From: a virus
DNA: 64,000 nt
Direction: 5' to 3' (one strand)
Virus genome (UHGV): UHGV-0026213
Part shown: positions 48,406-53,550 of the stretch, one piece after another
Numbering within the stretch: position 1 is the first letter of the stretch
Layout of the letters: each line of letters begins with the position of its first letter
The notes under the pieces: model-generated
The model's database searches: none
Seen by the model: the letters and a program-made list of their open reading frames with translations, nothing else
Told to the model about the DNA's origin: nothing
Made by a program: the position numbers and the translations under genes

Positions 48406-49254
48406 ATGTCTCTTACGTCAAAACAGAAACTGCTAAAACTCATCAACACTGAAAACAATATTGTTCCACCATTGACCTTCAGTGATGTTGATATCGGCGA
48501 ACCTACTGGTACTGGGGTTGATACCCAGGTGGTTCTGACTTCTAAACTCAAAGGCGATGAGTCTACTACTTTAACCGTGACTTACCATCGTCGTAATTTG
48601 CCCGAATACCTAACAGGTGAGTTGGTATTCGGTAACGACGGTGTTGTAACCGCCGCAGATTTGCTTAATGCAATCAACGCAAAATACGATTTAAATATCC
48701 TGCCGTCGGATATCGTTGATGCGAAAGTTGAAGGCGAAACCCACCAACTTACCGCTAACGAGAAATCCTACGAGTGGTGCGGCGAGGTGACACTTACGCT
48801 ACGCGATCCTATTGATCTGGCTAAACTATTACCTGTTACTCAATTAGAAAACCTGGTAGAGTATCCGTCCACTAAGAAAGGTAACGCTGCGGTTTATTCT
48901 TATCCAATTGACTTCACCGCAGAAAAAGATTACCTCGATCCGATTACCATTAACGACACTGTCGACCTGGCTGAGTTAGCCACTAAACTGGTCAACGTCG
49001 TTGATGAGAAATGGGTAAGCGTACCTAAAAACGCTGCTAATAACCTCTACGGTGCTAAGGTTATCTACGATGGGCCTACCGCAGGTTATGAAGGTGCAAA
49101 CACAAAGTACACGCGTGTGCTGGTACTCGCACTCAGTGGGCTGTGTGCTAACCTGACCGGTAATCTGTTAATCCACTTTAACGGAACCGATCGTCCGAAG
49201 TCGAAGATTGAATTAGCTAAAACTAATTCGGTCTTACCGGGATTCTTAGATTAA
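48406..49254 (+). CDS. member 1 of a four-gene paralogous family (282 aa)
   Basis: N-terminal pattern L..LIN.EN....L...DVD.G.P.......T.V.LT shared with the 49268, 52409 and 53020 genes. Confidence 0.6.
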   Translation: MSLTSKQKLLKLINTENNIVPPLTFSDVDIGEPTGTGVDTQVVLTSKLKGDESTTLTVTYHRRNLPEYLTGELVFGNDGVVTAADLLNAINAKYDLNILPSDIVDAKVEGETHQLTANEKSYEWCGEVTLTLRDPIDLAKLLPVTQLENLVEYPSTKKGNAAVYSYPIDFTAEKDYLDPITINDTVDLAELATKLVNVVDEKWVSVPKNAANNLYGAKVIYDGPTAGYEGANTKYTRVLVLALSGLCANLTGNLLIHFNGTDRPKSKIELAKTNSVLPGFLD

Positions 49255-49267
49255 GAGGATTACAGTA

Positions 49268-49744
49268 ATGACCAGTCAAGAAACTATCTTCGACCTTATT
49301 AAAAAGGCTAACCCAGACGCTGAGCTCGACACCGCCAAAGTTACATTGGGTGAGCCCGTCGTAAGTACCGGTGCGTACAACACCGAAGTTACGGTTGCGT
49401 CAATTAAGAATCTCGGTTATGCTAATAAGCAAACGTTCCAGTATAACCGCATCGATGCAGGTTTGTATTTCCTCAACGTATTGCCGAAACTGTTAGTTGA
49501 ATCAGCTACCACAACTGCGGACTTGCTGCCTGTAATCAATGAGCAGTATGGCTTAACCCTTACTGAAGACGACGTATGGGTAGAGCAGGTTGGTGAGTTA
49601 CCGCTGGACGGCAGTGCAATCGAGCACGGCATTTTCTTCCGTCCTGAATGCCTAACCTGGGTCGGTGGTTTTACAGTGCGCGTTGCACGTAAACCGACTG
49701 TTGAAACACCGCCAGCTAAGCCATCACGCGCTAAGAAGAAATAA
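49268..49744 (+). CDS. member 2 of the four-gene paralogous family (158 aa)
   Basis: Same N-terminal pattern; C-terminal basic tail; terminator follows. Confidence 0.55.
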   Translation: MTSQETIFDLIKKANPDAELDTAKVTLGEPVVSTGAYNTEVTVASIKNLGYANKQTFQYNRIDAGLYFLNVLPKLLVESATTTADLLPVINEQYGLTLTEDDVWVEQVGELPLDGSAIEHGIFFRPECLTWVGGFTVRVARKPTVETPPAKPSRAKKK

Positions 49745-49748
49745 CGAC

Positions 49749-49783
49749 AGGGTGGGGTAATCCCACCCTCTTTTCTTTTTTTG
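49749..49783 (+). terminator. rho-independent terminator
   Basis: GGGTGGGG-TAAT-CCCACCC hairpin followed by TCTTTTCTTTTTTT. Confidence 0.85.
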
Positions 49784-49805
49784 TGTAAAAGAGGAGTTAA
49801 ACAAA

Positions 49806-50396
49806 ATGGCCGAACGTTGGACTAAAGAAGGTATTATTGCTTCGAAAACAGATTTAGAAGGCGGGTACGTAAACGACCCTGACGATAAAGGTGGGGAAAC
49901 CTGTCACGGTGTAACACTAACAACTGCACGCGAATACGGGTATAAAGGAAAAATGAAGGATCTGACCCGTGCGCAGGCGTTTGATATTTACGATCGCGGT
50001 TGGTGGAAGAAACTTAAACTCGATGAGATTTTAGCTATTTCACCCTTACTCGCAGACCGGATGTTTGATTTTGCTATTAACTCTGGCCGCGTTAACTGTG
50101 TGAAATCGTTACAACGTATTCTGAACGTTTTAAATAACGAAGGGAAACTTTACGCAGATATTGACACCGACGGTGGCATGGGGCCTAAAACGCTAGGTGC
50201 CCTGAATGCTTATCTGAATTACCGTAAAGGCGAGGGGTTAGGTATCTTAATCTTTGCGTTAATCTCACACCAGGTAACCTACTACACGGAAATCTCCGAA
50301 AAGCGTAAGAAGAATGAAAAATTCGCTTACGGCTGGTACGCACGCGTGTTCAGAGAAATGCCGGATTATGTGGCGAAGGCAGGGTTAGTAAAATGA
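49806..50396 (+). CDS. endolysin, glycoside hydrolase family 108 (N-acetylmuramidase) with peptidoglycan-binding domain
   Basis: LEGGYVNDPDDKGGETCHGVTLTTAREYG matches the GH108 EGGYVN.P.D.GG.T..GIT signature; C-terminal GGMGPKTLGALNAYL resembles PG_binding_3. Confidence 0.8.
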   Translation: MAERWTKEGIIASKTDLEGGYVNDPDDKGGETCHGVTLTTAREYGYKGKMKDLTRAQAFDIYDRGWWKKLKLDEILAISPLLADRMFDFAINSGRVNCVKSLQRILNVLNNEGKLYADIDTDGGMGPKTLGALNAYLNYRKGEGLGILIFALISHQVTYYTEISEKRKKNEKFAYGWYARVFREMPDYVAKAGLVK

Positions 50397-50497
50397 ACTG
50401 GTTTGCTAAACTCTTAGCAGTATTGTGGAAAGCGTTAACGTCTGGACGGAAACGTAAAGACGAAAAACGCGGGTACGAATTTTTCTGGTTTCTATAA
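50393..50497 (+). CDS. possible 34-aa amphipathic peptide overlapping the endolysin stop
   Basis: ATG overlaps the endolysin TGA (ATGA); encodes MNWFAKLLAVLWKALTSGRKRKDEKRGYEFFWFL; below the ORF-track size cutoff. Confidence 0.25.
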   Translation: MNWFAKLLAVLWKALTSGRKRKDEKRGYEFFWFL

Positions 50498-51756: not shown

Positions 51757-51792
51757 CCCTACTCCTTATCGGGAGTAGGGTAGTTTTTTATT
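51757..51792. terminator. terminator between convergent genes
   Basis: CCCTACTCC-TTATC-GGGAGTAGGG hairpin followed by TAGTTTTTTATT; sits at the 3' ends of the plus gene (51671) and the minus gene (51788). Confidence 0.75.
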
Positions 51793-52270
51793 GTTCCGCA
51801 GGATGGAGCATTGTTCCGGTGTCAGGGGCTACACCTTCTTTACAGTGGAAGAAAGTAATGCCTTTACCATCACCCGTTTTATATTCTAAAGTAGAATACG
51901 CAAATGTTGGCGTTTTTGAAAGTAACCCATTTACACGATAGTAACGTTGTCCAGTGATAGGATCGATATTTCCATTAACTTTACCTAATAGATCTTTATA
52001 AAGTTGTGGCGACTCAATCTTACCATTTGGCCAAGTGGCTACCCAGTTAGCACCAGTATCGATTATAGTTACTGAGCCTAACATTAGGTTAGTCGAACTG
52101 ACGACAGGTTTGTAATTTACAAAATCTTGCTCTACACCCATACAGGTGTAAATAACCATGTCGTGTGGTTCCACCGGCACAGTCGAGAATTGACCGTTAG
52201 CGGTGGGTTGTAAAGCACATCCTGCTAATGAAAAAACACCAACCATAGCGATAAGAAAACGTTTTAGCAT
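51788..52270 (-). CDS. lipoprotein (candidate superinfection-exclusion/receptor-masking protein)
   Basis: MLKRFLIAMVGVFSLAGC has a lipobox (LAGC) with Ala at +2; ATG at 52270 lies 6 nt after AAGGTGA; minus-strand gene in a plus-strand region. Confidence 0.6.
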   Translation of the reverse strand: MLKRFLIAMVGVFSLAGCALQPTANGQFSTVPVEPHDMVIYTCMGVEQDFVNYKPVVSSTNLMLGSVTIIDTGANWVATWPNGKIESPQLYKDLLGKVNGNIDPITGQRYYRVNGLLSKTPTFAYSTLEYKTGDGKGITFFHCKEGVAPDTGTMLHPAEQ

Positions 52271-52408
52271 GTTTTCACCTTTTATAAAAAAGTTAAAAAT
52301 AATAATTTTACAGACGACCCTTACTGCCATCTGTCATAACTATTAAAACCACTTCTATAATCCGAACAATACTATGCAATCCACCCTGCCACACACGAGG
52401 TAAAAACG

Positions 52409-52954
52409 ATGGCTAAAGCTTTCAATCTGCAGCTCATTGAAGCTGTTAAAGCTAAAAACCCTGAAACTGCTTCTAAACTGACCGTAAATGATGTCGATTT
52501 CGGGGCCGTAGAAGCTTACACCCCGGCCGGTAAAAGCGACACCCGTAACACTAAAGTTGTCCTGACAGCGAAGAGCACGAGTGCTAACTTCACCGGTAAT
52601 AAAGAATTTCATTACATCCGTCTGGCGTCCGCTAACCTGATTGGAGCCAAAGCTTACCAGCAAGAAGGTAGCCTCGACCTGGAAAATGACGCTATCGTAA
52701 CCAAACTCAATCAAGAAATGGTTACTAAAGGTTATGTCGATGACGCGTTCGCTGTAGGTGAACTCACTATTGAGAAAACTAATGGCGAGAGCGGTGCTAA
52801 GGTTTACACTATCAAAGTAAATGCTGGGCACATTAAATTCCTACCAGGTACCATTGCCACCTTCACCTATACCAACCCGGTTCCTCCGAAGGTAGCTCTG
52901 AGCGGCCTGGAAGGTGAACTGGATGGTTTCACCGCACCGTCTCCTAAAGAGTAA
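52409..52954 (+). CDS. member 3 of the four-gene paralogous family; likely highly expressed
   Basis: E. coli-like optimal codons; ends ...GLEGELDGFTAPSPKE, like the next gene; own terminator. Confidence 0.6.
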   Translation: MAKAFNLQLIEAVKAKNPETASKLTVNDVDFGAVEAYTPAGKSDTRNTKVVLTAKSTSANFTGNKEFHYIRLASANLIGAKAYQQEGSLDLENDAIVTKLNQEMVTKGYVDDAFAVGELTIEKTNGESGAKVYTIKVNAGHIKFLPGTIATFTYTNPVPPKVALSGLEGELDGFTAPSPKE

Positions 52955-52959
52955 TTAAA

Positions 52960-52992
52960 TCGGGGAGGGGGTAACCTCCCCGATATTTCTTT
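52960..52992 (+). terminator. rho-independent terminator
   Basis: TCGGGGAGG-GGGTAA-CCTCCCCGA hairpin followed by TATTTCTTT. Confidence 0.75.
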
Positions 52993-53019
52993 AACTCGTA
53001 CTATTAAGGATTTAAGATA

Positions 53020-53550
53020 ATGGCAGCTACTAACCAGATGATGTTGGTCGCGCTTTATAATGCTGCTAACACTGAGCTACCACATCAGATTACTGATAAA
53101 GAAGTGTCCTTTGGTTTGCCTACTGCGCTGGAAGGCGAAGGTAAGAATACCAAAGTTACCATGACTGCACTACCAGGTTCTGAGAATTTCAAAGGCGCAA
53201 TCGAACTGCATTACGATCGTCTGGAACCGGGTGTTGTAGGGCGTATTGAACTAACTGACGATCTGTCTCGTTGGGAAGATCAAAACGAATTGCGCGCATG
53301 GTTACAATATTACATCAATAAAGTTAAACCGAACGATGCTATTCATCCAGCGGACGTTTCTTATTCTACCGAAGACCAGAAAGACGAACATGAAAACGTC
53401 ACTCTGCGTACGGTAACGTGCACCGTTACTGAAAAGAACCTCCGTTATAAACCAGGTGTAATGGCAACTTTCGTAATTACGCCGAAAGTTGTTGATAATC
53501 GTATTGACCTGGCCACCACCAACGGTGAGCTGGACGGCTTTACGTCCTAA
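53020..53550 (+). CDS. member 4 of the four-gene paralogous family; likely highly expressed
   Basis: Shares the N-terminal pattern and C-terminal NGELDGFT with the 52409 gene; optimal codons; own terminator. Confidence 0.6.
   Translation: MAATNQMMLVALYNAANTELPHQITDKEVSFGLPTALEGEGKNTKVTMTALPGSENFKGAIELHYDRLEPGVVGRIELTDDLSRWEDQNELRAWLQYYINKVKPNDAIHPADVSYSTEDQKDEHENVTLRTVTCTVTEKNLRYKPGVMATFVITPKVVDNRIDLATTNGELDGFTS

Follow-up and report, generated by a model that had tools for sequence, protein, structure and literature searches.

Among the virion components of jumbo phages, one of the largest that still lacks an explanation is a family of proteins sharing the DUF7941 module, which is encoded by 20–21 genes in phage SPN3US and is estimated to contribute at least 2,500 subunits to each virion of phage Goslar. 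The present analysis concerns a stretch of 64,000 nucleotides from the UHGV virus genome UHGV-0026213, which is called the window in the following, and in particular four genes between positions 48406 and 53550, here named A to D. These genes almost certainly encode proteins of the DUF7941 family, known in SPN3US as paralog family B, whose members are virion proteins restricted to phiKZ-like jumbo phages (Chimalliviridae). The family has already been described and the finding is in this respect largely ordinary; the window adds new members to it, in the form of a compact set of seven from an uncultivated enterobacterial lineage. New here are a linker motif which occurs throughout the family, a codon signature resembling that of the capsid protein in the members of the gp160 type alone, and a swapped allele at gene C. 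The linker motif and the swapped alleles provide handles for the comparison of filament and head-protein models of the family, and the overall picture is left unchanged.

Described members of the family

In SPN3US 25 virion proteins were assigned to three paralog families, and family B consists of gp83, gp138-154, gp160, and gp237 (PMC5694885; PMC10052503). It falls into the same Pfam and PHROG families as the proteins of the window. Most family B proteins are of low abundance, and two of them, gp141 and gp160, are present in more than 300 copies per virion as determined by mass spectrometry and densitometry (PMC5694885). The DUF7941 module is named in a preprint on phage Goslar, which has ten members, and the number of copies per virion was estimated there to be about 2,140 for gp23 and about 580 for gp22. 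Purified Goslar gp22 yielded filaments in negative stain, head-to-tail oligomers were predicted, and a 'cloud' of flexible filaments aiding the encounter with the host was put forward by the authors as a speculative idea (bioRxiv 10.64898/2026.04.21.720040). [quoted passage not shown] Whether the proteins are part of the head or of filaments at the baseplate is disputed in the literature. A literature search found no further paper dealing with DUF7941, save for a passing mention in connection with Spiroplasma.

Seven members in the window

A first-pass annotation, made from the sequence without database searches, had proposed a paralogous family of four genes on the basis of a common N-terminal pattern. 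The four open reading frames were found where they had been placed, encoding 282 (A), 158 (B), 181 (C), and 176 (D) amino acids, and the N-terminal pattern is seen in alignments. A protein was counted as a member if its whole-protein score reached the curated gathering score of Pfam PF25613 (DUF7941), which is 27 bits, and all four are above this threshold with 182.1 bits for A, 102.6 for B, 31.0 for C, and 39.3 for D. C and D are near the threshold, and their membership is confirmed by phrog_4862, to which both belong, and by the fold. A to D have the PHROG families 1037, 2935, and 3589 in common, which are annotated as 'virion structural protein'. Three further members, named E (50.5 bits), F (68.1 bits), and G (61.5 bits), were detected with phmmer, with a family profile built for the analysis, and with Pfam. 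Paralogy is therefore borne out and the number of members has to be corrected from four to seven in 64 kb. The family profile, when applied to 272 six-frame open reading frames, gave exactly seven matches, with E values from 4e-40 to 5e-15.

Pairwise alignment, which had been suggested as a check, detects the relationship for part of the pairs. In BLASTP, C and D align over their full length with 30% identity (E=2.7e-15), A and D with E=4.9e-5, and A and B with E=1.9e-4, while B gave no match to C or D and is connected with them through profiles. This missing pairwise similarity is the point in favour of regarding the genes as four unrelated small reading frames with a chance N-terminal pattern, or as abundant non-structural proteins. 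Such an explanation is effectively refuted, since all four proteins pass the Pfam threshold, seven profile matches stand out among the 272 reading frames, and the fold is that of a solved virion component. In addition, purified SPN3US and Goslar virions contain homologues, and phiKZ gp127 has been modelled into cryo-electron microscopy density of the virion.

Gene A (48406–49254, plus strand) encodes a protein of the long type, whose N-terminal module is followed by a C-terminal domain and, at the end, by a tail particular to the lineage, which terminates in VLPGFLD. It covers positions 5–275 of the 276 positions of the Pfam model and matches phrog_1037 (E=2e-63), SPLA1a_143 (44% identity), Goslar gp22 (E=1e-11), and phiKZ gp127 (Protein Data Bank (PDB) entry 9xqd, E=7.7e-7), of which the N-terminal 150 residues alone have been modelled experimentally. 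To judge from these sequence matches, A is the counterpart of phiKZ gp127, of Goslar gp22, and of the gene that opens the tandem array in the SPN3US group. Matches to A obtained by tblastn in other phages mostly end at residue 259, and the extra 22-residue tail of A with its L-P-G-F has no equivalent in SPLA1a_143, phiKZ gp127, and Goslar gp22, which end without such a tail. Gene B (49268–49744, plus strand) starts 13 nucleotides after A, and in phiKZ gp126 likewise follows gp127. Its product is of the short type and consists of the N-terminal module alone (Pfam model positions 7–155), without the L-x-G-F tail and with a basic end rich in proline and lysine. Both A and B are similar to proteins encoded in the SPLA1a tandem array (143-149), with E values down to 6e-71. 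In SPLA1a, eight or more adjacent genes of this array are annotated as 'virion structural protein', of which seven entered the comparison, whereas at this position the phage of the window has only A and B. Both genes adjoin a GH108-type endolysin, as do Goslar gp22 and gp23. An origin of the C-terminal domain of A from an old duplication of the N-terminal module was considered, and the hints in this direction were not significant: these were a BLASTP match between residues 231–258 of A and 43–69 of C (E=0.005) and an hhalign comparison of the profile of the C-terminal domain with that of C and D (probability 4.8%, E=0.008), which gave the suggestive alignment N..L..V.(F/Y).G...N..V.L...NF.G..HY.

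Genes C (52409–52954, plus strand) and D (53020–53550, plus strand) encode short proteins of the type of SPN3US gp160 and Goslar gp23. Identity to SPN3US gp160 is 48% for C (E=4e-49) and 35% for D (E=1e-29), and both are its orthologues; D in addition matches phrog_4862 (8.5e-35) and Goslar gp23 (E=5e-9). In SPN3US, gp160 is located in the same neighbourhood as C and D here, with the difference that SPN3US has one gene of this type and the phage of the window has two. In phiKZ, which has about three family members, no high-copy gene of the gp160 type was identified in the present analysis. Goslar shows the same two architectures, a long one in gp22 as in A and a short one with a tail in gp23 as in C and D, and it resembles the phage of the window also in the location of the genes next to a GH108/COG3926 endolysin, in a D-G-F tail motif, and in members tied to host-recognition domains. 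Identity to the Goslar proteins is low, however, with 29–35% over partial lengths, and the filaments and copy numbers which were measured in Goslar are inferred here.

A structural model of C calculated with AlphaFold2 from an alignment of 29 sequences reached a predicted local distance difference test score (pLDDT) of 93.8 and consists of one domain rich in helices and strands, and a tail. A Foldseek search of the PDB with this model gave no match. The fold match that was obtained was to the N-terminal module of phiKZ gp127 (PDB 9xqd) only, which assigns C to the fold of DUF7941. In BFVD, 51 matches were found at E<=0.001, and all named ones were jumbo-phage proteins, several of which are annotated as virion structural, tail, or tail fibre proteins. 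An Ig-like fold or that of a known decoration protein, which had been anticipated, was not recovered, as there was no similarity beyond phiKZ gp127. The AlphaFold2 model of A had a mean pLDDT of 56, with the N-terminal module alone moderately confident; the C-terminal domain was not resolved because the alignment was shallow, and the model was left out of the fold search.

The remaining three members are located at a distance from A to D. Gene E (10846–11373, plus strand) encodes 175 amino acids with LALDGF in the tail, was found by phmmer with B as the query, and matches phrog_2935 (2.5e-48). Gene F (30966–31571, plus strand) encodes 201 amino acids as listed, with an uncertain start, and scored E=5e-15 with a family profile that had been built without it. 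Gene G (37761–38291, plus strand) encodes 176 amino acids from an uncertain TTG start (profile E=8e-20). F and G share 34% identity (E=1e-33) and both have VLTF in the tail. F lies directly upstream of the gene of a 1533-amino-acid tail fibre, and G just downstream of two Gp38-type adhesin genes.

The region flanked by F and G (31774–37677, plus strand) is a T-even-style host-recognition module in a phiKZ-like phage. The fibre contains Gp34_trimer and Phage_fiber_2 domains and a Peptidase_S74 chaperone; the two adhesin genes encode a T2-type Gp38 adhesin (36375–37157; PF05268, 237 bits) and a protein with the Gp38_N domain only (37174–37677). Downstream of G, a gene at 38745–40736 (plus strand) encodes a protein of 663 amino acids with a SASA carbohydrate-esterase domain and DUF6645 (phrog_143), which is possibly a receptor-modifying tail enzyme. 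A small DUF488-N3a protein (45 bits) is encoded just upstream of F (30548–30922, plus strand).

Abundance, tail motif, and location in the virion

High-expression codon usage had been noted for the family, and in particular for its last two genes, and this proved correct for C and D and not for A and B. The codon adaptation index was calculated for 69 genes of the window with the E. coli weights of Sharp and Li. C (0.49) and D (0.45) rank second and third, with a median of 0.28, while A and B take ranks 12 and 9. The highest value, 0.81, was obtained for the reading frame at 70–519 (plus strand), which represents the C-terminal 149 amino acids of the major capsid protein (phrog_3231, profile positions 618–744 of 746); the gene runs past the left edge of the window, and the fragment was used as an internal positive control for the codon analysis. 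A reference-free principal component analysis of relative synonymous codon usage placed the same three genes at the top, with loadings on CTG, CGT, ACC, CCG, GGT, ATC, TTC, and TAC. As the G+C content at third codon positions of C and D is average, their codon bias is not explained by base composition. Family members differ in abundance in SPN3US, and the codon bias found here for C and D is in line with the high copy number of gp160. The earlier suggestion of abundant virion proteins, such as capsid or tail decoration proteins, or of host-interaction proteins is supported by the homology to SPN3US gp160 and to Goslar gp22 and gp23, and by analogy to these C and D are likely abundant virion proteins.

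Such abundance could also be accommodated if C and D were external decoration proteins of the capsid, or head fibres on the capsid lattice, instead of filaments at the baseplate. The homologues occur in copy numbers (more than 300 up to about 2,000) similar in magnitude to the number of capsid lattice positions, SPN3US heads retain them, and only the capsid protein surpasses C and D in codon bias. Nevertheless, this appears quite improbable, as no placement of a DUF7941 protein on the capsid was found in the literature, gp127 is put into the baseplate by the phiKZ atlas, and the model of C has no fold match to known decoration proteins; the atomic model of Goslar leaves all DUF7941 proteins unmodelled.

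Each of the four genes had also been thought to possess its own terminator. C is followed by a terminator-like hairpin of ten pairs, seven of them G-C (52959–52984, plus strand), which is kept in relatives, and a bidirectional terminator-like hairpin of 12-13 pairs (53563–53593) is located between D and the convergent DUF4376 gene; a T-run accompanies both. A and B, on the other hand, have one hairpin in common (49749–49769, plus strand; nine pairs, six G-C, with a T-run), and the 13 nucleotides between them contain none. Since hairpins of equal strength follow unrelated neighbours as well (at 45358, 47755, 48245, and 51755), the terminators are a property of the region and not of the family.

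Upstream of C a conserved block, CTATGCAATCCACCC (52372–52386, plus strand), ends 23 nucleotides before the start codon and is followed by a conserved GAGGT ribosome-binding site. TATGCAA and CCACCC in this upstream region are invariant in eight related phages although the coding sequence downstream has strongly diverged. The TATG core of the block, 36 nucleotides upstream of C, matches the late-promoter motif of phiKZ, for which the consensus 5'-TATG-3' with the G as the start site has been published (PMC4666361). This conserved TATG is weak evidence which would be compatible with late transcription of C. A promoter common to the whole family is not supported: TATG occurs within 100 nucleotides upstream of A, C, and G only, and the window contains no second good copy of the block.

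C and D had been noted to end with the same GELDGFT, and this was confirmed: the motif occupies residues 169–175 in both proteins (52913–52933 in C and 53524–53544 in D, plus strand). The comparison covered 26-29 homologues, among them SPN3US gp160 and a protein of an Erwinia phage, with identities as low as 42-45%, and in addition the paralog D (29%). L171 and F174 did not vary in this set, and G169, D172, and G173 varied hardly at all. In an alignment of 115 C-type alleles, residues 161–170 are among the blocks of lowest entropy. Degenerate forms of the tail occur as VLPGF in A, ALDGF in E, VLTF in F and G, and VADGF in Goslar gp23, so that a motif of the L-x-G-F type is present in six of the seven members in the window, B having the basic tail instead. 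When 1.84 billion representatives were searched with a profile of the gp160 type, 202 clusters were matched. Among the matches listed, a hydrophobic-x-(G/T/S/A)-F occurs within the last 22 residues of 53 of 91 short proteins, and about two dozen longer ones contain two to three N-terminal modules in tandem at a spacing of about 170-180 residues. The same motif (e.g., LDGF, LTGF, ISGF, or LPGF) lies in the linker directly after the module in most of the fusions examined. As it follows modules in natural fusions and has degenerate forms in other members, GELDGFT is a family-wide inter-module linker motif and not merely a trace of the duplication of C and D.

Proteins with two to three tandem N-terminal modules include P0172, P0174, P0176, and P0204 besides others, and some of them continue into long C-terminal regions. 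In the metagenomic protein P0204 the DUF7941 modules are fused to a Gp38 adhesin domain. One match, P0159, was discarded as evidence. It is a Mollicutes-type surface protein of 2,709 amino acids (DUF285, spiralin repeats) with 22 weak matched stretches and many unrelated Pfam matches, and its match to the profile of C and D is probably due to repeat inflation. The DUF7941 matches in Spiroplasma proteins (PMC13375240) may deserve the same caution.

A linker motif between fused modules fits the published model of head-to-tail filaments, and an explanation of the DUF7941 genes of the window along these lines is preferred here with moderate confidence. Each protein consists of an N-terminal alpha/beta module of about 145 residues and a short linker with the pattern L-x-x-x-hydrophobic-(D/P/T)-G-F, to which the long type, represented by A, adds a C-terminal domain. 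The linker or tail of one protomer would dock on the N-terminal module of the next one and thus give rise to head-to-tail chains or filaments on the virion, as has been proposed for Goslar and phiKZ. By analogy with these phages, the chances of head-to-tail assembly are about even or slightly better. In view of their capsid-like codon bias and of the abundance of gp160 and gp23, C and D would be the high-copy bulk subunits, transcribed late, possibly from the TATG site upstream of C, and translated efficiently. A and B would form a low-copy unit similar to gp127 and gp126, which in phiKZ is found at the outer periphery of the baseplate, and B, having no tail motif, would be the end of a chain. 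F and G may be linked to the tail-fibre and Gp38-adhesin module which they flank. The homologues and the literature suggest abundance, polymerisation, location in the virion, and a role in the encounter with the host, and for the location an external position linked to the baseplate is somewhat favoured over the head.

Several observations weigh against the filament explanation. The codon signal is found in C and D alone, E, F, and G being as unremarkable as A and B, and the promoter assignment of the block upstream of C depends on a core of four nucleotides. In the baseplate maps of Goslar no DUF7941 density was seen, and the filament cloud comes from a preprint which itself declares it speculative (bioRxiv 10.64898/2026.04.21.720040). 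Furthermore, all SPN3US family B proteins turned up in preparations of heads without tails and have provisionally been regarded as head or ejection proteins (PMC5694885; PMC10052503), which is in conflict with a filament anchored at the baseplate.

The SPN3US findings, which are direct proteomic ones, are the basis for the main competing proposal ('Head ejection?'), namely that the proteins are internal or associated with the capsid, packaged together with the DNA, and possibly ejected. Mutant particles without tails contained family B proteins, gp160 and gp141 among them, which were counted with the 55 head proteins (PMC5694885; PMC10052503), and the GenBank record of phiKZ labels gp128, located beside gp127, as 'structural head protein'. 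A head location of this kind is nevertheless unlikely. The N-terminal domain of phiKZ gp127 has been built into baseplate density, and some members of the family carry fused carbohydrate-binding, hydrolase, LRR, or Gp38 adhesin domains, which would hardly be expected within a capsid. The prohead protease processes eight SPN3US proteins, and family B is not represented among them (PMC5694885). The presence in head preparations could also result from self-assembling filaments which co-purify with heads, and the cassette-like swapping of alleles at C, which is described below, is more typical of exposed components.

Allele replacement at gene C and related loci

The phage to which the window belongs is an uncultivated jumbo phage related to SPN3US, with a size of about 225 kb, and the identical locus is present on a metagenomic contig of 224,967 bp. 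Proteins of the window share 25–50% identity with those of SPN3US, the Erwinia Agrican-type phages, CR5, Goslar, and phiKZ. When the region was compared by megablast with 50,697 phage records, no close cultured relative was found at the nucleotide level, and a single stretch of 408 nucleotides with 76% identity was returned. The gene order is kept in eight related loci and is collinear with SPN3US gp156-164, comprising the GH108 lysin, DUF1353, a peptidase, a lipoprotein, C and D, DUF4376, and two radical SAM genes.

In two of the related loci, L011 and L012, the C protein has only 60% and 55% identity to that of the window, while neighbouring genes have 94–100% and D has 95–98%; among the relatives as a whole the identity of D is 84–98%. 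The synonymous divergence (dS) of C in these two loci is 1.5 and 1.2 as compared to 0.03–0.27 for the neighbours, and the ratio of nonsynonymous to synonymous divergence (omega) is 0.2-0.3. Nucleotide identity falls only within about 52440–52920, and the block upstream and the terminator downstream stay conserved. C is thus a sharply bounded swapped allele, diverged and under purifying selection. Local positive selection as the cause of the divergence was rejected, since dS is raised as much as the nonsynonymous divergence and omega is 0.2-0.3, which points to replacement of the allele. The C alleles retain the N-terminal segment, the strand with HIKFLxGTIA, and the tail motif, and the remainder has been replaced by recombination. 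From the source names no host-specific pattern of the alleles was obvious, with Salmonella, E. coli, and Shigella mixed at all levels of identity. L011 and L007 contain a third copy of the gp160 type. The close relatives have two or three such genes each, in agreement with the diversification by duplication that had been postulated at the outset.

Cassette exchange of C is the pattern expected for an exposed surface component under selection. A tentative further step, which is on the whole doubtful, would be to regard C as the major subunit of an external filament and its gene as a recombinational cassette, in which the assembly surfaces (the N-terminal segment, one core strand, and the GELDGF tail), the promoter, and the terminator are kept and the exposed body is exchanged among jumbo phages that are nearly identical in other respects, with a copy number drifting between 2 and 3. 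If this were true, it would amount to a variation of an abundant virion protein similar to that of flagellin or pilin, serving the encounter with the host or the evasion of host recognition; no description of such a variation system for Chimalliviridae was found in the literature. The likeness to the filament subunits flagellin and pilin is a functional analogy only and consists in the combination of conserved assembly ends with variable alleles. Unlike in these proteins, the variable region of C is not a discrete inserted domain and entropy differences along the protein are modest, and C has no sequence or fold relationship to them.

Close relatives of the phage (including P0004, P0016, P0018, P0021, P0113, and P0125) are found on contigs of 220–227 kb in isolate assemblies of Salmonella enterica, E. 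coli, and Shigella at NCBI. As these contigs are filed under isolate assemblies, the jumbo phage seems often to accompany cultured isolates, which suggests, for example, a carrier state, pseudolysogeny, or contamination.

Beside C and D there is a second mosaic block (53615–57947, minus strand), which contains the DUF4376 gene and its downstream genes, the two radical SAM genes among them. It has 99–100% identity in L011 and L012, and 52–94% in L014, L013, and L007-L010. A third radical SAM gene, absent from the window, is present in L010 and L013. Between the lysis-related genes and C, a gene at 51788–52330 (minus strand) codes for a protein in which a signal-like N-terminus is followed by a lipobox (LAGC). 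This protein belongs to phrog_9559 and is the counterpart of SPN3US gp159; its identity in L007, L008, L009, and L010 is merely 70–72%. Upstream of A a separate paralogous pair of genes is located at 46165–46593 and 47807–48238 (plus strand), with 33% identity (E=3e-28) and membership in phrog_8484. The reading frame between the two (46616–47737) varies in length, with 373 amino acids in the window, 253–255 in L012 and L014, and 389 in L010.

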